Positions 3,770-23,213 of a stretch of DNA of 64,000 nt are shown one piece after another. The stretch lies in assembly GCF_058153355.1 (NCBI RefSeq), contig NZ_CM177019.1. The stretch is one strand, 5' to 3'. The notes under the pieces are model-generated. The model saw only the letters and a list, made by a program, of their open reading frames with translations. It was not told the DNA's origin and ran no database searches. How positions within the stretch are numbered: the first letter of the stretch is position 1; each line of letters opens with the position of its first letter. The translations under genes and the position numbers were made by a program.

Positions 3770-6010
3770 ATGAACAAGAAGATTCATTCCCTGGCCTTGT
3801 TGGTCAATCTGGGGATTTATGGGGTAGCGCAGGCACAAGAGCCAACCGATACTCCTGTTTCACATGACGATACTATTGTCGTTACCGCCGCCGAGCAGAA
3901 CTTGCAGGCGCCTGGCGTTTCGACCATCACCGCAGATGAAATCCGCAAAAACCCGGTTGCCCGCGATGTATCGGAGATCATTCGTACCATGCCTGGCGTT
4001 AACCTGACCGGTAACTCCACCAGTGGTCAGCGTGGTAATAATCGCCAGATTGATATTCGCGGCATGGGTCCGGAAAATACGCTGATTTTGATTGACGGTA
4101 AGCCTGTCAGCAGCCGTAACTCGGTGCGTCAGGGCTGGCGTGGCGAGCGTGATACCCGTGGTGATACCTCCTGGGTGCCGCCTGAAATGATTGAACGTAT
4201 TGAAGTTCTGCGTGGTCCGGCAGCTGCGCGTTATGGCAACGGCGCGGCGGGCGGCGTGGTTAACATCATTACCAAAAAAGGCAGCGGCGAGTGGCACGGC
4301 TCCTGGGATGCTTATTTCAATGCGCCAGAGCATAAAGAGGAAGGTGCCACCAAACGCACCAATTTCAGCTTGACCGGTCCGCTGGGCGACGAATTCAGCT
4401 TCCGTTTATATGGCAACCTCGACAAAACTCAGGCTGATGCGTGGGATATTAACCAGGGCCATCAGTCAGCGCGTGCCGGAACGTATGCCACGACGTTACC
4501 AGCCGGGCGCGAAGGGGTGATCAACAAAGATATCAATGGCGTGGTGCGTTGGGACTTCGCCCCTATGCAATCACTCGAACTTGAAGCGGGCTACAGCCGC
4601 CAGGGTAACCTGTATGCAGGTGATACCCAAAACACCAACTCCGATTCCTATACGCGCTCGAAATATGGCGATGAAACCAACCGCCTGTATCGCCAGAACT
4701 ACTCGCTGACCTGGAACGGTGGCTGGGATAACGGCGTGACCACCAGCAATTGGGTGCAGTACGAACACACCCGTAACTCGCGTATACCGGAAGGTTTGGC
4801 GGGCGGCACCGAAGGGAAATTTAACGAAAAAGCGACACAAGATTTCGTCGATATCGATCTTGATGACGTGATGTTGCACAGCGAAGTTAACCTGCCGATT
4901 GATTTCCTCGTTAACCAGACGCTGACGCTGGGGACTGAGTGGAATCAGCAGCGGATGAAGGACTTAAGTTCCAACACCCAGGCGCTGACCGGAACGAATA
5001 CCGGCGGTGCTATTGATGGTGTAAGTGCCACTGACCGTAGCCCATATTCAAAGGCAGAAATTTTCTCGCTATTTGCCGAAAACAACATGGAGCTGACTGA
5101 CAGCACCATCGTAACGCCGGGGCTGCGTTTCGATCATCACAGCATTGTCGGCAATAACTGGAGTCCGGCGCTGAATATATCGCAAGGTTTAGGCGATGAC
5201 TTCACGCTGAAAATGGGCATCGCCCGTGCTTATAAAGCGCCGAGCCTGTACCAGACTAACCCGAACTACATTCTCTACAGTAAAGGTCAGGGCTGCTATG
5301 CCAGCGCGGGCGGCTGCTATTTGCAAGGTAATGATGACCTGAAAGCGGAAACCAGCATCAACAAAGAGATTGGTCTGGAGTTCAAACGCGACGGCTGGCT
5401 GGCGGGCGTCACCTGGTTCCGTAACGATTATCGCAATAAGATTGAAGCGGGCTATGTGGCTGTAGGGCAAAACGCAGTCGGCACCGATCTCTATCAGTGG
5501 GATAACGTGCCGAAAGCGGTGGTTGAAGGTCTGGAAGGATCGTTAAACGTACCGGTTAGCGAAACGGTGATGTGGACCAACAACATCACTTATATGCTGA
5601 AGAGTGAAAACAAAACCACGGGCGACCGTTTATCGATCATCCCGGAGTATACGTTGAACTCAACGCTGAGCTGGCAGGCACGGGAAGATTTGTCGATGCA
5701 AACGACCTTCACCTGGTACGGCAAGCAGCAGCCGAAGAAGTACAACTATAAAGGTCAGCCAGCGGTTGGACCGGAAACCAAAGAAATTAGCCCTTACAGC
5801 ATTGTTGGCCTGAGCGCGACCTGGGATGTGACGAAGAATGTCAGTCTGACCGGCGGCGTGGACAACCTGTTCGACAAGCGTTTGTGGCGAGCGGGTAATG
5901 CCCAGACCACGGGCGATTTGGCAGGAGCCAACTATATCGCGGGTGCCGGGGCGTATACCTATAACGAGCCGGGACGTACATGGTATATGAGCGTAAACAC
6001 TCACTTCTGA
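3770..6010 (+). CDS. fepA: TonB-dependent ferric enterobactin outer-membrane receptor FepA, 746 aa
   Basis: ORF track 3713..6010; internal ATG at 3770 gives MNKKIHSLALLVNLGIYGVAQAQEPTDT (signal peptide), the recalled FepA start; C-terminal aromatic residue typical of beta-barrel OMPs. Confidence 0.95.
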   Translation: MNKKIHSLALLVNLGIYGVAQAQEPTDTPVSHDDTIVVTAAEQNLQAPGVSTITADEIRKNPVARDVSEIIRTMPGVNLTGNSTSGQRGNNRQIDIRGMGPENTLILIDGKPVSSRNSVRQGWRGERDTRGDTSWVPPEMIERIEVLRGPAAARYGNGAAGGVVNIITKKGSGEWHGSWDAYFNAPEHKEEGATKRTNFSLTGPLGDEFSFRLYGNLDKTQADAWDINQGHQSARAGTYATTLPAGREGVINKDINGVVRWDFAPMQSLELEAGYSRQGNLYAGDTQNTNSDSYTRSKYGDETNRLYRQNYSLTWNGGWDNGVTTSNWVQYEHTRNSRIPEGLAGGTEGKFNEKATQDFVDIDLDDVMLHSEVNLPIDFLVNQTLTLGTEWNQQRMKDLSSNTQALTGTNTGGAIDGVSATDRSPYSKAEIFSLFAENNMELTDSTIVTPGLRFDHHSIVGNNWSPALNISQGLGDDFTLKMGIARAYKAPSLYQTNPNYILYSKGQGCYASAGGCYLQGNDDLKAETSINKEIGLEFKRDGWLAGVTWFRNDYRNKIEAGYVAVGQNAVGTDLYQWDNVPKAVVEGLEGSLNVPVSETVMWTNNITYMLKSENKTTGDRLSIIPEYTLNSTLSWQAREDLSMQTTFTWYGKQQPKKYNYKGQPAVGPETKEISPYSIVGLSATWDVTKNVSLTGGVDNLFDKRLWRAGNAQTTGDLAGANYIAGAGAYTYNEPGRTWYMSVNTHF

Positions 6011-6042
6011 TGCTAACGTCAGATTGTTGACAAAGTGCGCGT

Positions 6043-6150
6043 CGTTCATGCCGGATGCGGCGTGAACGCCTTATCCGGCCTACAAAAATCTTGCCAATTC
6101 AATATATTGCAGGATAGTGTAGGCCTGATAAGCGTAGCGCATCAGGCAGT
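6043..6150. repeat. REP (repetitive extragenic palindromic) elements between fepA and entD
   Basis: gccggatgcggcgtgaacgccttatccggcctac and inverted partner gtaggcctgataagcgtagcgcatcaggc are canonical E. coli REP sequences. Confidence 0.65.
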
Positions 6151-6184
6151 TTTGCGTTTGTCATCAGTCTCTAATATGGTCGAT

Positions 6185-6805
6185 ATGAAAACTACGCATA
6201 CCTCCCTCCCCTTTGCCGGACATACGCTGCATTTTGTTGAGTTCGATCCAGTAAATTTTCGCGAGCAGGATTTACTCTGGCTGCCACACTACGCACAACT
6301 GCAACACGCTGGACGTAAACGTAAAACAGAGCATTTAGCCGGACGGATCGCTGCTGTTTACGCCTTGCGGGAATATGGCTATAAATGTGTGCCCGCAATC
6401 GGCGAGCTACGCCAACCTGTGTGGCCTGCGGAGGTATACGGCAGTATTAGCCACTGCGGGACTACAGCATTAGCCGTGGTATCTCGTCAACCGATTGGCA
6501 TTGATATCGAAGAGATTTTCTCTGTACAAACCGCAAGAGAATTGACAGACAACATTATTACACCAGCAGAACACGAGCGACTCGCAGAATGCGGTTTAAC
6601 CTTTTCTCTGGCGCTGACACTGGCATTTTCCGCCAAAGAGAGCGCATTTAAGGAAAGCAAGATACAGGCCGCTCAAGGTTTTCTGGGTTATCAGATAATT
6701 AGCTGGAATAAACAGCAGATCATCATTCGACTAGAGGATGAGCAGTTTGCTGTGCACTGGCAGATAAAAGAAAAAATAGTCATAACGCTGTGCCAACACG
6801 ATTAA
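6185..6805 (+). CDS. entD: Enterobactin synthase phosphopantetheinyl transferase EntD, 206 aa
   Basis: ORF track 6035..6805; ATG at 6185 gives MKTTHTSLPFAGHTLHFVEFDP, the recalled EntD start; downstream of fepA on the same strand. Confidence 0.9.
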   Translation: MKTTHTSLPFAGHTLHFVEFDPVNFREQDLLWLPHYAQLQHAGRKRKTEHLAGRIAAVYALREYGYKCVPAIGELRQPVWPAEVYGSISHCGTTALAVVSRQPIGIDIEEIFSVQTARELTDNIITPAEHERLAECGLTFSLALTLAFSAKESAFKESKIQAAQGFLGYQIISWNKQQIIIRLEDEQFAVHWQIKEKIVITLCQHD

Positions 6806-6825
6806 TTGACAACATCTGGTACGAT

Positions 6826-7290
6826 TCGCCCGCAGCCATCACTGACCACGGGCGAAAGTGTAAAGCAGGTGCCTTACCATCCTGACCTAACAACCGGATA
6901 TGCGGGGATTACTCCCCGCACAACGGCTACTTCTTCGGTTCGTAAGCGAGAACAGCCCTGAACTCAATATTACGTTCCTTTACGGTGAACTCACACAGCG
7001 AGTCGCCGACCAGAAGCGTAAATCCCAGCACTGTCAAACACAGCACTATGACCGCCACAAGGGCATATTTCGTCAGCATGTTTATATTGCCTCCATGCGA
7101 AGAAGGGACTACCATCCAAATTGTCTGGTTTGGAGTGGCGGCCCCAGGGTTGATAGAAATATCTCCTGGGGCTTCATCTTTCCAGACCTCAGAGTAAACC
7201 TGAAACCGGAAAGCTTCAGGCACCCGCCGTTATCTTACCCTTCCTTAGCAAAATGGCTGTTTATTTATACAGTGAGTCCTGTTTCGGACT
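6826..7290. repeat. Tandem repeat unit 1 of a hok/sok-type locus (~465 bp)
   Basis: Near-identical to 7328..7792 at an offset of 502 bp (direct tandem duplication with a few substitutions). Confidence 0.85.
6927..7079 (-). CDS. Hok-family type I toxin (membrane peptide), 50 aa, tandem copy 1
   Basis: C-terminal 50 aa of minus ORF 6927..7223: [50 protein letters not shown]; Hok/Gef family signature. Confidence 0.8.
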
Positions 7291-7327
7291 TCTGTTGGCA
7301 AAACTGATCATTGCCCTTAAAACGACA

Positions 7328-7792
7328 TCGCCCGCAGCCATCACTGACCGCGGGCGAAAGTGTAAAGCAGGTGCCTTACCATCCTGACCTGACAACCGGA
7401 TATGCGGGGATTACTCCCCGCACAACGGCTACTTCTTCGGTTCGTAAGCGAGAACAGCCTTAAACTCAATATTACGTTCCTTTACGGTGAACTCACACAG
7501 CGAGTCGCCGACAAGAAGCGTAAATCCCAGCACCGTCAAACACAGCACTATGACTGCCACAAAGGCATATTTCGTCAGCATGTTTATATTGCCTCCATGC
7601 GAAGAAGGGACTACCATCCAAATTGTTCGGGTTTGGAGTGGCAGCCCCAGGGTTGATAGAAATATCTCCTGGGGCTTCATCTTCCAGACCTCAGAGTAAA
7701 CCTGAAACCGGAAAGCTTCAGGCACCCGCCGTTATCTTACCCTTCCTTAGCAAAATAGCTGTTTATTTATACAGTTGGTCTTATTTCGGACT
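7328..7792. repeat. Tandem repeat unit 2 of a hok/sok-type locus (~465 bp)
   Basis: Direct repeat of 6826..7290. Confidence 0.85.
7429..7581 (-). CDS. hokE: Hok-family type I toxin HokE-like, 50 aa, tandem copy 2 (adjacent to ybdK)
   Basis: [50 protein letters not shown]; position next to ybdK matches the hokE locus of K-12. Confidence 0.8.
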
Positions 7793-8023
7793 TCTCACTA
7801 CGCATTAGATCAACCGAAACTAAGCCAGTTTTTCCTTCGCCCCTCAATCGTCAAAATTCTCCGCCGCCAGCCAGCTCTGCCATAACCTGGCACATTGCAA
7901 AAGTAGCCAAATTGCTTCAGTAGCAATCAGTTCACCATCACCAAAAAAAAAGAAACATTCCAGAACTTCCGCATCTCCCCCGGCCGCTCCCACTTCTATA
8001 CTGAAATGAAAACGCCAACATAA

Positions 8024-9151
<1,128 letters not shown>

Positions 9152-9216
9152 GTCGGGAATTGCCTTACAGAAGAATATCCCTGACAATGGTGTTTTAACT
9201 TACATTTAACAATGTT

Positions 9217-9465
9217 ATGAAACACCCTTTAGAAACCTTAACCACCGCAGCAGGCATTTTGCTGATGGCTTTCCTCTCTTGCCTGCTGCTGCCCGCCCCC
9301 GCACTGGGACTGACGCTGGCACAAAAACTGGTGAACACGTTCCATCTGATGGATCTTAGCCAGCTTTACACTTTATTGTTTTGCCTGTGGTTTTTAGTGC
9401 TGGGCGCAATTGAGTATTTTGTTCTGCGCTTTATCTGGCGACGCTGGTTCTCGCTGGCGGATTAA
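9217..9465 (+). CDS. ybdJ: Small inner-membrane protein YbdJ, 82 aa
   Basis: 82-aa ORF with two hydrophobic segments; synteny ybdK-ybdJ-ybdF. Confidence 0.8.
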
Positions 9466-9529
9466 ACGTCGATTATCGCCGTACTTCACGGCATACTTTG
9501 CTTATTCTCCTTCGCCTAAAGGAACGTTT

Positions 9530-9898
9530 ATGGATAAGCAATCACTGCACGAAACGGCGAAACGCCTGGCCCTTGAGTTACCCTTTGTCGAGCTTTGCTG
9601 GCCTTTTGGCCCGGAGTTCGATGTTTTTAAAATTGGCGGCAAGATTTTTATGCTGTCGTCGGAGCTGCGCGGCGTCCCCTTTATCAATTTGAAGTCCGAT
9701 CCACAAAAATCCCTGTTAAATCAGCAGATATACCCGAGCATTAAGCCAGGGTATCACATGAATAAGAAGCACTGGATTTCAGTGTATCCAGGCGATGAGA
9801 TCTCCGAAGCGTTACTGCGCGATCTTATCGATGATTCATGGAATTTAGTGGTTGATGGCTTATCTAAACGCGATCAAAAAAGAGTGCGCCCAGAGTAA
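9530..9898 (+). CDS. ybdF: Uncharacterized protein YbdF, 122 aa
   Basis: ORF track 9410..9898; internal ATG at 9530 ([19 protein letters not shown]) gives 122 aa, consistent with YbdF. Confidence 0.82.
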
Positions 9899-9992
9899 AA
9901 GCGAAAATCTATAGCGCATTTTTCTCGCTTACCATTTCTTGTTGAACCTTGTAATCTGCTGGCACGCAAAATTACTTACACATGGAGTCTTT

Positions 9993-10646
9993 ATGGATAT
10001 CATTTCTGTCGCCTTAAAGCGTCATTCCACTAAGGCATTTGATGCCAGCAATAAACTTACCCCGGAACAGGCCGAGCAGATCAAAATGCTGCTGCAGTAC
10101 AGCCCATCCAGCACCAACTCCCAGCCGTGGCATTTTATTGTTGCCAGCACGGAAGAAGGCAAAGCGCGTGTTGCCAAATCCGCCGCCGATAATTACGTGT
10201 TCAACGAGCGCAAAATGCTTGATGCCTCGCACGTCGTGGTGTTCTGCGCGAAAACCGCGATGGACGATGCCTGGCTGAAACAGGTTGTTGACCAGGAAGA
10301 TGCCGATGGCCGCTTTGCCACGCCGGAAGCGAAAGCCGCGAACGATAAAGGTCGCAAATTCTTCGCCGATATGCACCGTAAAGATCTGCATGATGATGCT
10401 GAGTGGATGGCAAAACAGGTTTACCTCAACGTCGGTAACTTCCTGCTGGGCGTTGCGGCGCTGGGTCTGGACGCGGTGCCAATCGAAGGTTTTGACGCAG
10501 CAATCCTCGATGAAGAATTCGGTTTGAAAGAGAAAGGCTACACCAGCCTGGTGGTTGTTCCGGTAGGTCATCACAGCGTCGAAGATTTCAACGCTACACT
10601 GCCGAAATCCCGTCTGCCGCAAAACATCACCATAACTGAAGTGTAA
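9993..10646 (+). CDS. nfsB: Oxygen-insensitive NAD(P)H nitroreductase NfsB, 217 aa
   Basis: ORF track 9939..10646; ATG at 9993 gives [19 protein letters not shown], the recalled NfsB start. Confidence 0.93.
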
Positions 10647-10654
10647 TTCTCCTT

Positions 10655-10676
10655 TGCCGGGCATCCGCCCGGCTAT
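10655..10676 (+). terminator. Possible terminator hairpin after nfsB
   Basis: Perfect stem gccgggc-atcc-gcccggc immediately after the nfsB stop, followed by a weak T-rich tract (tatttcc). Confidence 0.4.
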
Positions 10677-10705
10677 TTCCCCTCAGATTATCCTGATTTG
10701 CATAA

Positions 10706-12001
<1,296 letters not shown>

Positions 12002-12008
12002 TTAAAAA

Positions 12009-12039
12009 ACCGCTCTCATCGAATGGATGAGAGCGGTTT
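12009..12039. terminator. Bidirectional rho-independent terminator between convergent ybdG and pheP
   Basis: Stem-loop accgctctcatc-gaatg-gatgagagcggtt flanked by A-run upstream and T-run downstream. Confidence 0.65.
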
Positions 12040-12080
12040 AGGATGGTTGACATCGTTTTGTCGGATGTAGCGTGAACGCC

Positions 12081-13457
12081 TTATTTCCGACGCAGCGTTT
12101 TAAACGCCACAAACAGGAATACAATCCACACTGGCAGCAAAATCGCTGACAAGCGCATATCATCCAACGTGCACATCAGCAGCAAAATCATGCCGAGGAA
12201 GGCAATGCAGAGATAATTGCCGAATGGATAAAGCAGCGCTTTAAACTGTGTTTCACGCCCCTGACGTCGCATCGCCGCGCGAAAACGCAGATGCGCCAGA
12301 CAGATCATAATCCAGTTCAACAGCAACGTTGCCACCACCAGCGCCATCAGCAGACCAAACGCTTTTTGCGGCAGCAGATAGTTAATCAGCACCACCAGAG
12401 AAGTGATCGCCCCGGAAAGCATCAGCGAGTTGATCGGCACACCGCGATGGCTAACGCGGGTAAGAAACTTCGGCGCATTACCCTGCACAGAAAGGCCAAA
12501 CAGCATGCGGCTGTTGGAGTAAACCCCACTGTTATAGACCGACAACGATGCCACCAGAATGACGAAATTCAGCGCAGAAGCCACCACATTGCTGTCGAGA
12601 TTATGGAAAATCATCACAAACGGGCTACTGTTAGATTTCACTTCCACCCACGGATAGAGCGCCAGTAAAACCACCAGTGAACCGATATAAAACAGCAGGA
12701 TGCGATAAACCACCTGATTTACCGCTTTTGGAATACTTTTTTCCGGATCGCGCGCTTCAGCCGCAGTAATCCCAATCAGTTCCAGCCCGCCGAAGGAAAA
12801 CATGATCACCGCCAAGGACAAAATCAGCCCATTCCAGCCCGTGGCGAAGAAACCACCATAGCGCCAAAGGTTGTCGATACTGGCTTTCTCACCGCCGTGA
12901 CCAGAAAACAGCAGCCACAGGCCAAAGCCGATCATGCCGATAATTGCCAGCACTTTAATCAGCGCAAACCAGAACTCAGTTTCGCCATATAAGCGCACGT
13001 TCACCAGGTTAACAGCGTTGATGATAATAAAGAAGGCGGCAGCCCAGATCCAGGTGGGAACATCCGGGAACCAGTACTGCATATAGATGCCCGCAGCGGT
13101 CAGCTCAGCCATCCCCACCAGTACGAACATCACCCAGTAGTTCCAGCCTGAGAGGAAGCCCGCAAACGGTCCCCAGTATTTATAGGCAAAGTGGGCAAAC
13201 GAACCGGATACCGGCTCCTCAACCACCATCTCGCCAAGCTGGCGCATAATCAGGAAAGCAATGATCCCGGCGACGCCGTAGCCCAACAAGACAGCCGGAC
13301 CTGCCATCTGAATCGCCGGGCCAATGCCAAGAAACAGACCAGTACCAATAGCGCCACCCAGCGCAATCAGTTGAATATGACGGTTATGTAATCCGCGATG
13401 AAGCGTCGGCTCTTTATTCGACGCAGTATCTTCCGATACGGTTGACGCGTTTTTCAC
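12081..13457 (-). CDS. pheP: Phenylalanine-specific permease PheP, 458 aa (GTG start)
   Basis: ORF track 12081..13493; GTG at 13457 gives (M)KNASTVSEDTASNKEPTLHRGLHNRHIQLIALGG, matching PheP; APC-family permease. Confidence 0.93.
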   Translation of the reverse strand: MKNASTVSEDTASNKEPTLHRGLHNRHIQLIALGGAIGTGLFLGIGPAIQMAGPAVLLGYGVAGIIAFLIMRQLGEMVVEEPVSGSFAHFAYKYWGPFAGFLSGWNYWVMFVLVGMAELTAAGIYMQYWFPDVPTWIWAAAFFIIINAVNLVNVRLYGETEFWFALIKVLAIIGMIGFGLWLLFSGHGGEKASIDNLWRYGGFFATGWNGLILSLAVIMFSFGGLELIGITAAEARDPEKSIPKAVNQVVYRILLFYIGSLVVLLALYPWVEVKSNSSPFVMIFHNLDSNVVASALNFVILVASLSVYNSGVYSNSRMLFGLSVQGNAPKFLTRVSHRGVPINSLMLSGAITSLVVLINYLLPQKAFGLLMALVVATLLLNWIMICLAHLRFRAAMRRQGRETQFKALLYPFGNYLCIAFLGMILLLMCTLDDMRLSAILLPVWIVFLFVAFKTLRRK

Positions 13458-13558
13458 GCCTTTCCCCTGTGTGTCTTTTTTGTTGAGGGGCACCTTTTAA
13501 CATTTAGTGCCCATCGTCGCAAGACACAATCCACACGGTTAAACCGGGTATCTTGCTT

Positions 13559-16500
13559 TTATTTCCGTACCCGGTGTCGGTGCAGCCACATCAGCTTATA
13601 CGCCGCCGGAATAATAAACAGCGACAGCAAAGGTGCGGTGATCATGCCGCCAATCATCGGCGCGGCAATCCGGCTCATCACCTCTGAACCTGCCCCCGTT
13701 CCCCACAAAATCGGCAGCAGACCCGCGATAATCACCGCCACCGTCATCGCTTTCGGGCGCACGCGCAGTACCGCGCCGTGATATAACGCTTCATCCAGCT
13801 TCTGCTCGCTGAATGTTTGCGGATTATCCAGGGATGGATCTGCCTCTATGGCGTGACGTAAATACATCAGCATCACCACGCCAAATTCGGCGGCGACTCC
13901 CGCGAGGGCGATAAAGCCAGTGCCCGTTGCCACGGAAAGATGAAAATCCATCCACCACAGCAACCAGATACCACCCACCAGCGCAAACGGTACGCTGCTG
14001 ATAATCAGTAACGCTTCACCCACGCGACGGAACGCCAGATACAACAGCACGAAGATGATCATCAGCGTCATCGGCACCATGAGTTTCAACTTATGGTTGG
14101 CGCGCTCCAGTAGCTCGAACTGCCCGGAGAATGCCACGCTGGTGCCCGGTTTTAACTGCACTTTCCCGGCAATCGCTTTTTGCAGATCGTGAACCACCGA
14201 CACCATGTCACGATCGCGGGCGTCGATATAAATCCAGCTCGTCGGGCGCGCATTCTCGGTTTTCAGCATCGACGGTCCAATGGAGACTTTAACGTCGGCC
14301 ACATCCGCCAGGGTGATTTGCTGCTTCATCGGCGTCAGGATCGGTAGCTGGCGCAGCGCCTGCAGGCTGTCGCGCCAGCTTTGCGAATAACGCAGATTAA
14401 TTGGATAACGGGCAATCCCTTCCACCGTTTCGCCAACCATCGCCCCGCCCACCGCAGAAGTCACAAACAACTGCACATCCGCCACCGTCATACCGTAACG
14501 CGCGGCTTTTTCACGGTTAATCTCAACGTTGATATAGCGCCCACCTTCCAGACGCTCAGCAAGAGCAGAAGCCACGCCTGGCACCGTTCGCGCCACTTCT
14601 TCAATTTGCTCCGCCATCGCGTCGATATCCGCCAGCACAGTGCCGGAAACTTTAATGCCGATGGGGCTTTTAATGCCGGTTGAGAGCATATCGATACGGT
14701 TACGAATTGGCGGCACCCACAGATTTGCCAGCCCCGGCAGACGCACGGTGTTGTCCAGTTCCTCAATGATTTTGTCCATCGTCATGCCTGGCCGCCACTG
14801 ATCCTGTGGCTTAAGCTGGATGGTCGTTTCTACCATCTCCAGCGGTGCGGAGTCGGTGGCGGTTTCCGCTTTCCCGGTTTTGCCAAACACCCGCGCCACT
14901 TCCGGCACGCTCATAATCAGCTTGTCGGTTTTTTGCAGCATACTCGCCGCCTCTGCTGCGGAAATCCCCGGCAGCGTCGATGGCATATACAACAAGTCGC
15001 CTTCATTGATCTGCGGTAAAAATTCCCCGCCAACTTTATTGAGCGGCCAGAGAACCGTCAGCACCGAAAGCGCTGCCACCAGCAGCGTGGTTTTCGGCCA
15101 GTGTAGTACTTTCAGCAACAGCGGATGATAAACACGAATCAAAAAGCGATTGAGCGGGTTACTGCTTTCTGGCGGAATTTTGCCACGGATCCAGTAGCCC
15201 ATCAGGATCGGGATCACTACGATCGCCAGCAGCGCCGCGCCCGCCATCGCATACGTTTTGGTGAACGCCAGCGGGCCAAACAGACGCCCTTCCTGTCCTT
15301 CCAGAGTAAAGATCGGGATAAACGACAACGTGATAATCAGCAAGCTGATAAACAGCGCCGGCCCCACTTCAACAGATGCATCGGTGATCACCTGCCAGCG
15401 CGTTTTATTATCCAGCGTGGCGTCAGGATGCTGGTGCTGCCACTCTTCCAGCCGTTTATGCGCATTCTCGATCATGACGATAGCGGCATCGACCATCGCC
15501 CCGACGGCAATCGCAATACCGCCCAGCGACATAATATTGGCATTCAGCCCCTGGAAGTGCATGATAATAAAAGCAATACACAACCCCAGCGGCAACGAAA
15601 TAATCGCCACCAGTGCCGAGCGCACATGCCAGAGAAACAGCGCGCAGACCATCGCCACCACAATAAACTCTTCCAGCAACTTGCCGCTGAGGTTGTCGAT
15701 GGCGCGGTCAATAAGCTGGCTGCGATCGTATGTTGTAACTATCTCTACGCCTTCCGGCAGACTGCTTTTCAGCGTTTCCAGTTTGTCCTTCACGGCGGCG
15801 ATCACTTCACGGGCGTTTTTGCCGGAACGCAGGATCACCACCCCGCCCGCCACTTCGCCTTCGCCGTTCAGTTCGGCAATGCCCCGGCGCATCTCCGGGC
15901 CAACCTGGACCTTCGCAACATCACGCAGATAAACGGGTACACCATTTTCACTGGCTTTTAAAACGATGTGATTGAAGTCGTCGAGCGTTTGCAGATAGCC
16001 GCTGGCGCGCACCATATATTCCGCTTCCGCCAGTTCGATCGACGAACCGCCCGCTTCCTGGTTTGAAGCATCCAGCGCGCTTTTTACTTCGGCGAGACTG
16101 ATGCCATATTGCGCCAGGCGCTGTGGATCGATAACCACCTGATACTCTTTCACCACACCGCCCACCGACGCCACTTCCGCAACGTCAGGGATGGTTTTTA
16201 GCTCATATTTGAGAAACCAGTCCTGCAATGAGCGTAAATCGGCCAGATCGTGCTTACCGCTGCGATCCACCAGTGCATATTCATAGATCCAGCCAACACC
16301 CGTGGCATCTGGCCCCAACTCGGCGCTGACTCCCGCAGGCAGCTTACCCTGTACCTGGTTGAGGTACTCCAGCACCCGCGAGCGCGCCCAGTACGGATCG
16401 GTGCCATCTTCGAAAATGACATACACATAAGAGTCGCCAAACTGCGAGAAACCGCGCACAGTCTTCGCGCCAGGTACTGACAACATGGTGGTGGTTAGCG

Positions 16501-16702
16501 GATAAGTCACCTGATTTTCAACGATTTGCGGTGCCTGACCGGGATAGCTGGTTTTAATAATCACCTGCACATCGGAGAGATCCGGCAGCGCATCCACTGG
16601 CGTGTTAATGATAGTCCAGGTGCCCCAGATACTCAGAAACAACGCGCCCATCAGCACCAGAAAACGGTTCGCCACCGAGCGACGAATAATCCATTCAATC
16701 AT
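13559..16702 (-). CDS. cusA: RND-family Cu(I)/Ag(I) efflux pump inner-membrane transporter CusA, 1047 aa
   Basis: 1047-aa ORF starting [29 protein letters not shown]; heavy-metal RND transporter; last gene of cusCFBA. Confidence 0.96.
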
Positions 16703-16713
16703 TGGTTATTCCC

Positions 16714-17937
16714 TCAATGCGCATGGGTAGCACTTTCAGAGCGCATCCGCTCCAGTGCGCCAGAAATATTGGCTTCAGAATCAATCAGGAACAGGCCGCT
16801 GGAAACCACCTTTTCACCTTCCGCCAGACCAGAACGTAGCGCGGTGACGCCTTGCGACGCCTGGAAAACAGCAACGCGTTTCGGTACAAAGCGCCCGTCG
16901 GCATCAACGGTAATCACCCGCTGTTCGTTACCAGTATCAATCAGTGCCTGTGACGGAATGAGCAGCATCGGTTCGCTGGCGGTGTTGAGTTGCAACCAGG
17001 CGTTCATTCCCGGTTTTAGCGCCTCGTCGGCGTTGTCGACTTCCAGACGCAGTTGCAGCGTGCGGGTCGCGGCATCCACGCCGGGTAGAAGGGTCCATTT
17101 GCGGATGCTGAGCGTTTTATCCGGTCGCGCCGGAACGGTGAGCGTAAACTGCGAGGCATCTTTCACCAGCCAGGCGATGGACTCCGGGATCGCAGCAGTG
17201 ACCCACACCGGGTCCATACCCTGAATTTTCGCGACCACATTATCTTTGGCGATATTCATTCCCGCGCGCAGATCAAACGCGGTGATCACGCCATCAATGG
17301 GCGCTTTGAGCGTAAAGCGAGTCTGGATTTTTTGCGTGGTAATCAGGCGGCGAATATCGGCCTCCGGCATTCCCGCCAGCCGCAGGCGTTCAAGAATGCC
17401 TTCAGTCTGGGTCGCCGTCCCGCCGGTTTCGCGCAGCAGTAAATACTCACTCTGCGCTTCCACCCAGTCGGGAATGGTCAGGTCGAGAAGCGGTGTGCCC
17501 TTTTGCACTTTATCGCCCACGGTGAGCGGATACACCTTGTCGATAAACCCGGCGGCGCGGGCCTGCACAATGGCAAACTGATACTCGTTGTAACTCACAT
17601 TCGCCGGGAAACTCTGGGCAAAAGTCAGCGGCCCGCGCGTGACGGTCGCCGTTTTCACCCCCAGATTTTGCGTCTGGGTCGGGTCAATGCGCACACCAGA
17701 CACAGAACTCTCTTCATCGGCATATTTCGGCACCAGATCCATATCCATAAACGGCGATTTACCTGGTTTATCGAACCGCGTATTGGGATACATTGGATCG
17801 TACCAGAATAAGACTTTACGTTCTGCGGTCGACGTTTTTTCTGCGGGCGGTTCAGCCTTTGCAAACCAGGTAAAACCTGCCGCAGAAATAATACCGCCCG
17901 CGATCATGCTGCCGATAATAAGCGCGATTTTTTTCAT
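16714..17937 (-). CDS. cusB: Cu(I)/Ag(I) efflux membrane fusion protein CusB, 407 aa
   Basis: 407-aa ORF MKKIALIIGSMIAGGIISAAGFTWF; 11-nt gap to cusA; synteny. Confidence 0.95.
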   Translation of the reverse strand: MKKIALIIGSMIAGGIISAAGFTWFAKAEPPAEKTSTAERKVLFWYDPMYPNTRFDKPGKSPFMDMDLVPKYADEESSVSGVRIDPTQTQNLGVKTATVTRGPLTFAQSFPANVSYNEYQFAIVQARAAGFIDKVYPLTVGDKVQKGTPLLDLTIPDWVEAQSEYLLLRETGGTATQTEGILERLRLAGMPEADIRRLITTQKIQTRFTLKAPIDGVITAFDLRAGMNIAKDNVVAKIQGMDPVWVTAAIPESIAWLVKDASQFTLTVPARPDKTLSIRKWTLLPGVDAATRTLQLRLEVDNADEALKPGMNAWLQLNTASEPMLLIPSQALIDTGNEQRVITVDADGRFVPKRVAVFQASQGVTALRSGLAEGEKVVSSGLFLIDSEANISGALERMRSESATHAH

Positions 17938-17952
17938 CTCATTAAACCTGGG

Positions 17953-18285
17953 TTACTGGCTGACTTTAATATCCTGTAATAAAGAAAGGTTGCCCTGCTG
18001 GACAAAATTAAACGCTACTTTGTCGCCAGTTTTAATTTCACTCATTTTCGTCTGCGGGGTGATGGTAAAGCGCATGGTCATCTCCGGCCAGTTCACTGCG
18101 GCAATCGGATCGTGGTGGATGGTGATTTTTTTGCTTTCCAGATCAACACCTTTTACCACACCGGTGGCGCTAATAACCTGTGGTTGTGCTTCGCTCATGG
18201 TTTCATGGTGATGTTCGTTAGCCTGGGCATTAAAGCCAATAACAGTAAACAGACTGAACATTACGACTTGCAGTGCTTTTTTCAT
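17953..18285 (-). CDS. cusF: Periplasmic copper/silver chaperone CusF, 110 aa
   Basis: 110-aa ORF with signal peptide MKKALQVVMFSLFTVIGFNAQA and metal-binding H/M/W residues. Confidence 0.93.
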   Translation of the reverse strand: MKKALQVVMFSLFTVIGFNAQANEHHHETMSEAQPQVISATGVVKGVDLESKKITIHHDPIAAVNWPEMTMRFTITPQTKMSEIKTGDKVAFNFVQQGNLSLLQDIKVSQ

Positions 18286-18307
18286 TATTCTCTCCTGGAG
18301 TTAAAAT

Positions 18308-19690
18308 TTATTGCTGCCAACCGCCACCCAGGGCGGTATATAAGGAAACTTCGTTAACCTGACGGGCATAATTCAGGTCGAGTAAAATTTGTCGGGTTGC
18401 AAATAAGGAACGCTCGGCATCCAGCACTTCCAGATAACTTACCGCGCCGTGCTGATATAATGCCCGCGCCCGTTGCAAAGTAATTTGCAGCGACGCCAGA
18501 TAACGCTGCTGGGCGCTGATTTGATCGTTCAGGCTTTGACGTAATGCAAGCGCATCTGCCACTTCTTTAAAGGCGTTCTGAATTTTCTGTTCATAATTCA
18601 CCACCGACTGCTGCTGGCGAATTTCGGCGATATCCAGATTGGCCTGGTTGCGTCCAGAATTAAAAATGGGGATCTCAATTTTGGGAATAAAATTCCACAT
18701 CCCGCTGCTGGCGTTAAATAATGATGACAGATCGCTGCTGGCGGTTGATATTCCACTGGTCAGGCTTATAGACGGGAAAAATGCCGCACGCGCAGCACCA
18801 ATATTGGCATTGGCCGCCATTAACGCGTGTTCAGCTTCCATAATATCCGGGCGCTGCAATAAGATTTGCGACGACAAGCCCGCCGGTAATTTAACGCTTT
18901 GCAGGCTGTCGCTGTTTACTGTCTGCGCTTGCGGCAGCTTGCCGTAGTTTCCCAATAACAGTTGCAATGCATTATTCGCCTGCGCCAGTTCCCCCTGACG
19001 TTTAGCGATATCACTGCGGGTACTTTCTATCACCCCGCGAGCCTGTTCCAGCGCCAGAACATTGCTGCTACCGGTCAACAGTTGTTTTTCAACAAACGCA
19101 TATGACTGCTGATAATTACGCAGCGTTTCTTCGGCTATTTGTAATTGCGCATAAGCCAGTTGCTGATTGAAATAGCTTTGCGCGACATTAGAAACCAGCA
19201 GAATATGCACCGCGCGCTGAGCTTCCTCAGTGGCTAAATAATTTTGTCGCTCGGCTTCGCTCATGTTCTTTAAGCGACCGAAAAAATCGAGATCAAAGCT
19301 GGCGTTAAGGCCAGTCGAGAACTCCCGCGTCGTGGCTGAATCGCCTTTAAGATTGCCGCTCCAGCTGCCGCTACCCTCGCCATTGAGCTGCGGGTAGCGG
19401 TCGGCATCGGTCAGACGATATTGCGCCCGTGCCTCCTGCACTTTCAGCGTCGCCATGCGCAAATCCCGATTATTCACCAGCGCCTCGCTAATCAGCGTCT
19501 TCACCTGATTATCAACAAAAAAGGTGCGCCAGCCCGCGTTCTGGTAGTTATCTACTGCGTTAACCAGGCCGTTCTGGCTGAGTGAGAACTGCTGCGGCAC
19601 GGGCATTGCCGGACGCTGATAATCCGGTGCCAGTGAACAACCGGTTAGCGCAAGGGCCACACAAAATGGCAGAAGTTTACAAGGAGACAT
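18308..19690 (-). CDS. cusC: Outer-membrane efflux channel CusC (TolC-like lipoprotein)
   Basis: ORF track 18308..19696; MSPCKLLPFCVALALTGCSLAPDYQRP contains a lipobox (LTGC); start codon choice approximate. Confidence 0.93.
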   Translation of the reverse strand: MSPCKLLPFCVALALTGCSLAPDYQRPAMPVPQQFSLSQNGLVNAVDNYQNAGWRTFFVDNQVKTLISEALVNNRDLRMATLKVQEARAQYRLTDADRYPQLNGEGSGSWSGNLKGDSATTREFSTGLNASFDLDFFGRLKNMSEAERQNYLATEEAQRAVHILLVSNVAQSYFNQQLAYAQLQIAEETLRNYQQSYAFVEKQLLTGSSNVLALEQARGVIESTRSDIAKRQGELAQANNALQLLLGNYGKLPQAQTVNSDSLQSVKLPAGLSSQILLQRPDIMEAEHALMAANANIGAARAAFFPSISLTSGISTASSDLSSLFNASSGMWNFIPKIEIPIFNSGRNQANLDIAEIRQQQSVVNYEQKIQNAFKEVADALALRQSLNDQISAQQRYLASLQITLQRARALYQHGAVSYLEVLDAERSLFATRQILLDLNYARQVNEVSLYTALGGGWQQ

Positions 19691-19759
19691 AGGCACATAA
19701 TTTCTGGTGATTTTATGCCGCCAACTTTACACGCCAGGCTCTGATTTTCCGGTGACAGG

Positions 19760-19781
19760 AAAATGACAAAATTGTCATTTT
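19760..19781. promoter_or_regulatory. CusR box in the divergent cusC / cusR promoter region
   Basis: Perfect palindrome aaaatgacaaaattgtcatttt between cusC and cusR, matching the recalled CusR binding site. Confidence 0.75.
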
Positions 19782-19846
19782 ACCAATAAGCGATTGCCAT
19801 CTGATCCCGCTACTCTAGAATTGCCCGGGCAACATGTGGAGGAAAT

Positions 19847-20530
19847 ATGAAACTGTTGATTGTCGAAGATGAAAAGAAAACCGGAGAATACTTGACCAAA
19901 GGGTTAACCGAAGCCGGTTTTGTGGTCGATTTGGCCGACAACGGGCTGAATGGCTACCATCTGGCGATGACCGGAGATTATGACCTGATAATCCTCGATA
20001 TTATGCTGCCGGACGTGAACGGCTGGGATATCGTGCGCATGTTGCGCTCCGCCAATAAAGGGATGCCGATTCTGTTGCTTACCGCGCTTGGCACCATTGA
20101 ACATCGCGTCAAGGGGCTGGAGTTGGGGGCAGATGACTACCTGGTGAAACCGTTCGCTTTTGCTGAACTGCTGGCGCGGGTGCGGACTCTACTGCGTCGC
20201 GGGGCGGCGGTGATTATCGAAAGTCAGTTTCAGGTTGCCGATTTAATGGTTGATCTGGTCAGCCGCAAAGTCACCCGCAGCGGCACGCGCATCACTTTGA
20301 CCACAAAAGAATTTACCCTGCTGGAATTTTTCCTCCGCCATCAGGGCGAAGTGCTGCCCCGCTCGCTTATCGCCTCGCAGGTGTGGGACATGAATTTCGA
20401 CAGCGACACTAACGCCATTGATGTGGCGGTGAAGCGGCTGCGCGGCAAAATCGACAACGACTTTGAGCCAAAGCTAATTCAGACCGTGCGCGGCGTAGGC
20501 TATATGCTTGAGGTGCCGGATGGCCAGTAA
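19847..20530 (+). CDS. cusR: Copper-responsive two-component response regulator CusR (OmpR family), 227 aa
   Basis: 227-aa [28 protein letters not shown]; receiver plus winged-helix domains. Confidence 0.95.
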
Positions 20531-21968
20531 GCCGTTTCAGCGCCCGTTTTCGCTGGCAACCCGCCTGACCTTTTTTATCAGCCTTGCCACCATTGCAGCG
20601 TTTTTCGTCTTTGCCTGGATCATGATCCACTCGGTAAAAGTGCATTTTGCCGAGCAGGATATTAATGATTTAAAAGAGATTAGCGCCACATTCAGGCGTG
20701 TTCTTAATCATCCCGAAGAGACACAAGCCCGACGCTTAATGACGCTGGAAGATATCGTCAGTGGTTATTCCAACGTGTTGATTTCTCTGACAGATAGCCA
20801 CGGCAAAACGGTGTATCACTCCCCCGGTGCGCCGGATATCCGCGAGTTTGCACGTGATGCCATACCCGATAAAGACGCTCGGAGCGGCGAGGTATATCTC
20901 CTTTCCGGCCCAACAAAGATGATGCCAGGCCACGGTCACGGGCATATGGAACACAGCAACTGGCGGATGATTAGCTTGCCGGTTGGCCCGCAGGTGGATG
21001 GCAAACCGATTTATACGCTCTACATCGCGCTGTCTATCGATTTTCATCTTCATTACATTAATGATTTGATGAATAAACTTATTATGACCGCATCGATCAT
21101 CAGCATCCTGATCGTCTTTATCGTGCTGCTGGCGGTACATAAAGGCCACGCGCCAATTCGCAGCGTCAGCCGTCAAATCCAGAACATTACCTCGAAAGAT
21201 CTCGACGTTCGCCTCGATCCACAGACCGTGCCGATTGAGCTGGAACAACTGGTACTGTCGTTCAACCATATGATCGAGCGTATTGAAGATGTCTTTACCC
21301 GCCAGTCCAATTTCTCAGCGGATATCGCTCACGAAATTCGTACGCCGATTACGAATCTTATAACGCAAACGGAAATTGCCCTCAGCCAGTCGCGCAGCCA
21401 GAAGGAGCTGGAAGATGTGCTCTACTCTAATCTCGAAGAGCTGACGCGAATGGCGAAAATGGTCAGCGATATGCTGTTTCTCGCCCAGGCCGATAACAAC
21501 CAGTTAATCCCCGAAAAGAAAATGCTCAACCTGGCGGATGAAGTCGGCAAAGTGTTCGATTTTTTCGAGGCATTAGCGGAAGATCGTGGCGTGGTGCTGC
21601 GGTTTGTTGGCGACGAATGTCAGGTTGCGGGCGATCCGCTGATGCTGCGTCGGGCGTTAAACAACCTGCTTTCTAATGCCTTGCGTTATACGCCACCCGG
21701 AGAGGCAATTTTAGTGCGCTGCCAGACGGTCGATCACCTGGTGCAAGTTACCGTCGAAAACCCTGGTACGCCCATTGCGCCTGAGCACTTACCGCGATTG
21801 TTTGACCGTTTCTACCGCGTTGATCCTTCCCGCCAGCGAAAAGGTGAAGGTAGCGGCATTGGGCTGGCGATAGTGAAATCAATTGTTGTCGCGCATAAAG
21901 GCACGGTTGCGGTAACGTCAGATGCGCGGGGGACAAGGTTTGTTATCGGGCTACCGGAGAGGGAGTGA
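20520..21968 (+). CDS. cusS: Copper/silver sensor histidine kinase CusS
   Basis: ORF track 20508..21968; ATG at 20520 gives [29 protein letters not shown]-box [11 protein letters not shown]; overlaps cusR end by 11 nt. Confidence 0.93.
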
Positions 21969-22325
21969 TTGGTCAGATAATGCAGTGGATGTTAATTGAA
22001 TTGAGAATTAGCTATTTCGTCACGAGAAAAAGCGTAAAATCCGTTTCGTGCAGATGGTGAGTTTTATCAGGGTATGGCGGTAGCGCAACTGTCTTTGGAT
22101 AATATATGTGATATGAATACATACCCCTAACAACTTCACTAACTAAATACTTAGTTTAGTTATATTAATTTGCATAATACAAACTCATCACCACGATATG
22201 TCATATATTTATAGTCAGCAATCTGGATATATTATTATATAAATGCCATATGGAAATAAAAATTATTATTTAATTCAATATGTAAATTTTACTCTTAACT
22301 ATTTTCGCAGGATAAACCAGCCTCT

Positions 22326-22772
22326 ATGAATATGACTAAAAAAGAAGCATTAGCATTCCTTGCTCTAAATCAACCTATGCCTAATGATTATGACATCACT
22401 CAGGAACTTATCGATAAATATGACGACGTAAGACTTTATTTTTGTGCAAATCCTGCTGAAGAGGCCATACCGTTATTTTTACAATCCTTTGGGGAAGGTG
22501 ATGGCTTAGGAGTATATCAGTTGGTCGAAGATTTTTTGTACAAGTGTGATAAAAACATTGTAGCTTCAAATATAGCCAACATACTGGAAAATCCTCTGAC
22601 AATAAAAAGTGTCCGATATTGGTGTACATTATTAGCAATGGCTTTTCCCGATAACACCTTAATTAAAGGATTAAATATTTCTCTACAATCTGATGATGAA
22701 GATACCCGAGACATGGCTATGTTAAGTTTAAAGATGATTACAGAGGAATATAAAACATTTGAATTCCAATAA
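22326..22772 (+). CDS. Hypothetical acidic 148-aa protein in an AT-rich islet between cusS and nfrB; no family assignable from sequence alone
   Basis: Uninterrupted 148-aa ORF (MNMTKKEALAFLALNQPMPNDYDITQELIDKYDD...) in a ~1.2 kb stretch of about 30-35% GC; helical/acidic composition; no obvious Shine-Dalgarno sequence, so coding status is uncertain. Confidence 0.45.
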   Translation: MNMTKKEALAFLALNQPMPNDYDITQELIDKYDDVRLYFCANPAEEAIPLFLQSFGEGDGLGVYQLVEDFLYKCDKNIVASNIANILENPLTIKSVRYWCTLLAMAFPDNTLIKGLNISLQSDDEDTRDMAMLSLKMITEEYKTFEFQ

Positions 22773-23213
22773 TTCCCCCTTGCATAAAAGATCACCATCA
22801 TGACAAAAACACAAGCAAAGTTGCTTATTTATAAAGCATTTGTTATTTTAACGTTCATTATTTCCCGGTTGAATATTAAACTTAATTAATCTAAAGAGAA
22901 ATGAAGTTAGCCTTCCTGTACCCACAGCAACGCCGTCTTTTTGTTCAGCACGGGGAAAATGTTCTCCCCTGCTCACCTCCTCCAGGCACTTCCACAACAT
23001 GATGACCTGATCGGTTGCCGCCTATCCTCCTCACTAAGACCTTCACCTCCGCGCTTTTGCCTACATCCTGCACAATCGGCAACTTTTATAACCAGTGTAA
23101 AAATAACGTGCCGCAATAATCCTACCTATTAATGATAAAAAGCTGTCACAATTCATAAAAAACTTTAATATACGCCACCCTAAACATAACCAGCGTTAAT
23201 GTAAGGTTTTTGT

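Follow-up and report, generated by a model that had tools for sequence, protein, structure and literature searches.

Does the hokE locus beside entD carry IS186 in this strain, as it does in Escherichia coli K-12, and if it does not, could the hok genes here have kept their regulation intact? The original prediction, made from the letters of this DNA, placed an un-inserted, ancestral junction at 6806-6826, between the entD stop codon and the first hok repeat. Our analysis of the whole 64-kb stretch of DNA (the window) indicates that the locus is very probably an empty-site allele of a known IS186 hot spot, with two full hokE/sokE modules in tandem; nothing interrupts their transcripts, for which a closure by tac-fbi pairing is predicted. 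The site that is empty, however, lies inside the hok 3' UTR and not at the entD junction.

The genes of the locus are arranged in the order fes (-), fepA (+), entD (+), two hok/sok units (-) and ybdK (+), which is the reverse of the K-12 order, and their coordinates are collected in Table 1. EntD is identical to K-12 EntD at 191 of 206 residues and contains both phosphopantetheinyl-transferase domains (Pfam 4PPT_N and ACPS), and the extent of the gene equals that of the RefSeq entD annotation in another sequenced locus (L005). The two hok/sok units are 96-97% identical and repeat with a period of 502 bp, each having a 1-nt indel relative to the other in its leader. Both hok ORFs are intact and match Pfam HOK_GEF (PF01848; 33.3 and 32.4 bits, cut-off 22), and each Hok peptide has two substitutions relative to K-12 HokE. 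The leaders match the Rfam sok family (RF01794), with 83.9 bits for unit 1 (at 7071-7225) and 76.4 bits for unit 2, where the gathering score is 59. On the strand opposite hok unit 1 there is an ORF of 135 aa (6900-7307, +) without a Pfam match, whose counterparts in RefSeq are named 'hypothetical protein' and are often marked 'frameshifted'; it is probably a spurious call.

Table 1 Features of the entD-hok/sok-ybdK locus, in window coordinates
Feature	Position	Strand	Basis
entD, phosphopantetheinyl transferase	6185-6805	+	ORF list, 206 aa, TAA stop at 6803-6805
entD-hok spacer, 20 bp	6806-6825	.	K-12 sequence identical
hok/sok unit 1, entD-proximal	6826-7293	-	repeat search; Rfam sok RF01794
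3'-terminal stem-loop of hok mRNA 1, TCGCCCGTGGTCAGTGATGGCTGCGGGCGA, no T-run after	6826-6855	-	fold, alignment, terminator scan
fbi element 1, predicted, AGGCACCU	6867-6874	-	ViennaRNA pairing probabilities 0.88-1.0
Hairpin GCGGGGATTACTCCCCGC, empty IS186 target, K-12 IS186B site	6902-6919	.	K-12 alignment, motif
hok CDS 1, 50 aa	6927-7079	-	Pfam HOK_GEF, translation
mok-like in-frame extension, putative	7080-7115	-	translation; analogy with in-frame mokC of K-12
Putative Sok 1 promoter (-35 TTGCCT, -10 TACCAT)	7087-7092, 7110-7115	+	inspection
Sok antisense RNA 1, predicted	7123-7181	+	K-12 sokE 607733-607792 mapped through alignment
tac element and 5' end of hok mRNA 1, predicted, GGGUGCCU	7218-7225	-	Rfam model, fold
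Inter-unit spacer, 34 bp, unique to tandem arrangement	7294-7327	.	repeat search, alignment
hok/sok unit 2, ybdK-proximal	7328-7795	-	repeat search; Rfam sok, Pfam
3'-terminal stem-loop of unit 2, tail TGTCGTTTTA	7328-7357	-	fold, terminator scan
fbi element 2, predicted	7369-7376	-	fold
Second hairpin GCGGGGATTACTCCCCGC, empty IS186 target	7404-7421	.	motif; occupied in strain A3176 (L003)
hok CDS 2	7429-7581	-	Pfam HOK_GEF, translation
Sok antisense RNA 2, predicted	~7625-7684	+	alignment
tac element 2, predicted	7720-7727	-	Rfam model, fold
ybdK, glutamate-cysteine ligase family 2, far edge of locus	8033-9151	+	ORF list, domain match

The absence of the element is straightforward. As had been claimed, about 20 bp separate the entD stop from the first hok repeat, and the further claim that neither a transposase ORF nor a terminal inverted repeat is present agrees with blastn, tblastn and a repeat scan of the 64 kb. 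With K-12 IS186B as query, blastn against the window gave chance matches of at most 22 nt only, and the best tblastn match to the K-12 InsL transposase had E = 0.67. The ORF list for 6000-8100 holds no InsL-like ORF, and the 23-nt terminal inverted repeat CATAAGCGCTAACTTAAGGGTTG found no match on either strand of the window with up to five mismatches. The question of chance hardly applies to this result, because the finding is the absence of a mobile element.

To see how common this arrangement is, we counted the alternative junctions in 5,426 complete E. coli genomes; the counts are approximate, since the search joins nearby pieces. The uninterrupted order entD, 3' UTR, hok occurs in 2,898 genomes (53%), and the junction between tandem units, including the 34-bp spacer, in 2,507 (46%). 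An entD-side junction to an IS186 oriented as in K-12 was counted in 1,676 genomes (31%), which is an upper bound and overlaps with the empty-site count for genomes that have the IS in copy 2, such as H34, while the opposite orientation accounts for another 235 (4%), so that IS186 is present at the hokE locus in about 35% of the set. Other alleles also occur. There are single-copy IS-free alleles (N1229, L002), and strain AST215 carries a deletion (L007 2550-3069), equivalent to window positions 6819-7025, which removes the hok 3' UTR together with roughly two-thirds of the CDS, so that entD and ybdK have nothing but the leader/Sok part between them.

The next question is whether the uninterrupted units could still be regulated in the canonical way. 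According to the tac/fbi model, the full-length hok mRNA is inactive, and 3' trimming allows it to refold, after which it is either bound by Sok or translated in a mok-coupled manner (PMC9841398). The putative 5' end of the hok mRNA was set at position 1 of the Rfam model, and in ViennaRNA minimum-free-energy folds of the full-length transcripts of both units nt 1-8 (GGGUGCCU) pair with AGGCACCU with a probability of 0.85-1.0, a pairing that depends in part on this choice of 5' end. In both folds the paired AGGCACCU is followed by a strong terminal stem-loop. In the window, the 5' tac element would thus pair with fbi to give a closed, untranslatable full-length mRNA, which slow 3' trimming would open, leading either to Sok binding and RNase III cleavage or to mok-coupled translation of Hok. 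A putative mok start is provided by an in-frame ATG 12 codons upstream of each hok gene (7113-7115 and 7615-7617), for which K-12 has no mokE annotation.

The antisense side is likewise predicted from alignment and inspection. A TTGCCT-17-TACCAT element ends 7 nt before the mapped 5' end of sokE and scores below the threshold of the consensus scan, and a hairpin with a U-rich tail, a putative Sok terminator, is found at the mapped location of K-12 sokE. The scan for sigma-70 consensus promoters over 6700-8050 found none, the proposed hok and Sok promoters being weak matches. The two units differ most at the predicted Sok 5' end (7123-7135 versus 7625-7638), which reads GTCTGG-TTTGG in unit 1 and GTTCGGGTTTGG in unit 2; K-12 and N1229 have the unit-2 type. 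In plasmid R1 the 5' region of Sok initiates target recognition, and this divergence could limit cross-talk between the two modules.

At their 3' ends the units also differ. The stem-loop of unit 2 is followed by the T-rich tail TGTCGTTTTA (7320-7357) and was called terminator-like, whereas after that of unit 1, as in K-12, comes ATCGTACC, which lacks a T-run (6818-6855), and therefore unit-1 transcripts might continue antisense into entD.

[quoted passage not shown] The present locus differs from R1 in being chromosomal and in having as putative mok start an in-frame 12-codon extension. These features support the view that both units retain the elements that canonical hok regulation would use, and it is plausible, as a prediction, that the regulation itself has been retained intact here.

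Both units could instead be silent or decaying remnants, in which case the absence of the IS would have no regulatory or physiological consequence, a reading that we consider unlikely yet by far the most serious of the alternatives. A recent preprint states, citing Pedersen and Gerdes 1999, that the IS-free chromosomal hokA and hokC and the hokB of K-12 gave no post-segregational killing and no activation by rifampicin (bioRxiv 10.1101/2025.08.07.668861). As IS-free chromosomal hok loci gave no such killing, 'intact' need not mean 'active', and the lack of a consensus promoter in our scan, the 1-nt leader indels between the copies and the occurrence of deletion alleles such as that of AST215 point in the same direction. 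On the other hand, both ORFs are intact and within two substitutions of the toxic K-12 HokE; the leader RNA scores above the Rfam gathering threshold, the tac-fbi complementarity is conserved, and the tandem arrangement is kept in almost half of the complete genomes. We prefer the reading of two full modules that would be capable of canonical regulation.

To locate the site that is occupied in K-12, we compared the window with MG1655, where hokE (607836-607988), IS186B (insL2, 608007-609351) and entD (609459-610079) follow one another, with ybdK and sokE beyond hokE. The K-12 copy of IS186 named in the original prediction is thus real, and the annotation does place it between hokE and entD. 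The window is nevertheless identical to K-12 base for base over 6794-6855, including the junction at 6806-6826, an identity that the original prediction had itself listed as a refutation, and the IS is found some 100 bp deeper in the locus. On the entD side, window 5901-6916 aligns with K-12 610363-609348 and reaches the edge of the IS, while on the hok side window 7407-8200 (with 6905-7293 of unit 1 as the alternative) aligns with K-12 608010-607216. The two alignments overlap by 12 nt, at window 6905-6916, and these 12 nt (GGGATTACTCCC) are single in the window and stand on both sides of IS186B in K-12, which upholds the claim of an un-inserted state. The target duplication in K-12 amounts to 10-12 bp, depending on where the ends of the IS are placed within the G/C runs. 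The insertion point of K-12 is therefore 6905-6916, within the 6902-6919 hairpin of the hok 3' UTR. Because the IS lies inside this hairpin, a 107-bp piece of the hok 3' UTR (609352-609458) stays behind in K-12, between IS186B and the stop codon of entD. An exact search for the 24-mer GATGGTAAGGCACCTGCTTTACAC, from the conserved hok 3' UTR, against contigs of one genome per species gave no matches.

The hokE/sokE locus of K-12 (b4415/b4835, with insL2 as b0582) has the same position and the same entD and ybdK flanks as the locus in the window. It has one hok unit with IS186B in the 3' UTR hairpin, whereas the two units of the window are both IS-free; after removal of the IS and one target copy, the K-12 sequence is collinear with each window unit and 93% identical. 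In K-12, the upstream flank corresponds to unit 2 and the downstream flank to unit 1. Very probably IS186B transposed into the hairpin of the single K-12 hokE, duplicating 10-12 bp, and so separated from the hok transcript its final ~95 nt, which now lie 1.3 kb away from the coding part. These ~95 nt comprise fbi and the terminal stem-loop, which are severed in K-12 because the insertion point lies between the hok stop and fbi. According to one study, IS186 in the hokC/gef gene of K-12 would likewise disrupt fbi and 3' processing (PMC3562002).

The hairpin has the properties of a preferred target. It starts 7 nt past the hok stop codon in both units, and GGGGATTACTCCCC (6904-6917 and 7406-7419) is an exact GGGG(N6)CCCC with the core GGGG-ATTACT-CCCC, in agreement with the published IS186 target, 5'-GGGG(N6/N7)CCCC-3'. 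This target has few instances in E. coli (19 + 35 loci), and IS186 enters it in both orientations (PMC5009759). The window contains only two GGGG(N6)CCCC motifs, each in a hok hairpin, and shows no enrichment of the motif (two found versus 0.71 expected, with 16 of 100 shuffles reaching two). In the hokC (gef)/sokC locus of K-12, IS186A occupies the homologous hairpin GGGGATCACTCCCC, also just 3' of the hok stop; this is another paralogue at another site (dnaJ-nhaA), with ATCACT instead of ATTACT as the target core. Strain E400634 (L004) has IS186 in the entD-proximal hairpin in the orientation opposite to K-12, and in strain A3176 (L003), where there are two hok units, the element occupies the unit-2 hairpin. 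The hits in K-12 hokE, in hokC and in these two strains identify the hairpin as a recurrent IS186 target.

In E400634 the IS is flanked by GGGATTGCTCCC on the entD side and by GGGATTACTCCC on the hok side (L004 1403-1418 and 2755-2770). These flanks are not identical, unlike those of a fresh target duplication, and possible explanations are a later point mutation or IS-IS recombination between two hairpins that deleted one hok unit. A broader proposal, which we regard as improbable, is that the hairpin is a built-in landing pad, hit independently across lineages, where selection may favour insertions that detune the hok toxins by uncoupling fbi and 3' processing, and where IS-IS recombination may collapse two units into one, as the unequal flanks in E400634 hint.

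The comparison also gives a direction to the change. The target is duplicated in K-12 and precise excision is rare, so the polarity runs from empty to occupied, which confirms that the window holds the uninterrupted, pre-insertion sequence and that the K-12 hokE allele is the derived, IS-disrupted one. A very small probability attaches to a secondary empty site, where an ancestor would have carried IS186 and lost it again when the element excised precisely or when homologous recombination brought in an empty allele. Exposure to the element is plausible, as about one in three complete E. coli genomes has it at this locus, and E. coli does recombine, the identity of the region being mosaic, with 97.5% for the best match and 95.3% for most. 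Yet no footprint is left, the target being single and perfect in both copies, and the whole 64-kb window is without IS186; among 857 events recorded across 520 mutation-accumulation lines, excision was seen once (PMC5009759), and loss through recombination would still restore the ancestral sequence state. Virtually no weight remains for a literal reading in which the K-12 IS186 lies in the 20-bp spacer, outside hok, with the spacer here as its empty site: the gene-order annotation would allow it, but the K-12 alignments refute 6806-6826 as the insertion site through the identity over 6794-6855 and the 107-bp remnant of the hok 3' UTR that separates IS186B from the entD stop, and no GGGG(N6/7)CCCC motif occurs in the spacer.

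A pre-insertion hokE locus is not new in itself, since IS-free, intact and duplicated hokE has already been published and the empty site is the common wild-type state. In the adherent-invasive strain NRG857c, hokE is duplicated in tandem (577,301-577,453 and 577,805-577,957), with hok loci that are intact and IS-free (PMC7232551), E. coli W has multiple hokE copies compared with one in K-12 (PMC3032704), and a preprint describes hok 'islets' that result from local duplication (bioRxiv 10.1101/2025.08.07.668861). NRG857c (hok-2.1/hok-2.2), E. coli W and strain 042 (hokE x2) resemble the window in having two hokE copies ~502-504 bp apart, and their sequences differ from it by a few percent. This strain, like most E. 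coli, thus has an uninterrupted hokE, and the insertion site is now pinned to one hairpin. For annotation, the 107 bp beside entD in K-12 can be read as the 3' end of hokE, cut off from the gene, and native hokE/sokE regulation should be better studied in strains such as the present one than in K-12.

Among the 5,426 complete E. coli genomes, the best match over 6000-8100 reaches 97.5% identity and most reach 95.3%, while over 20 kb (8000-28000) the highest identity is 97.9% and most genomes lie at ~95-96%. From this ceiling, the window should derive from an Escherichia lineage that is absent or scarce among complete RefSeq E. coli genomes. Between fepA and entD, at 6039-6126, there are REP-type palindromic elements, with an Rfam match to ES036 (44.4 bits versus a gathering score of 37.6) and a match to naRNA4 below threshold.

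Finally, in each of the two hok genes codon 46 is a TAC with a G after it (CTTACGAA; minus strand, 6941-6944 and 7443-7446). In the hokC, hokD and hokE mRNAs, A-to-I editing by TadA in a UACG context recodes Tyr46 to Cys (bioRxiv 10.1101/2025.08.07.668861), and the context found here matches the one reported.
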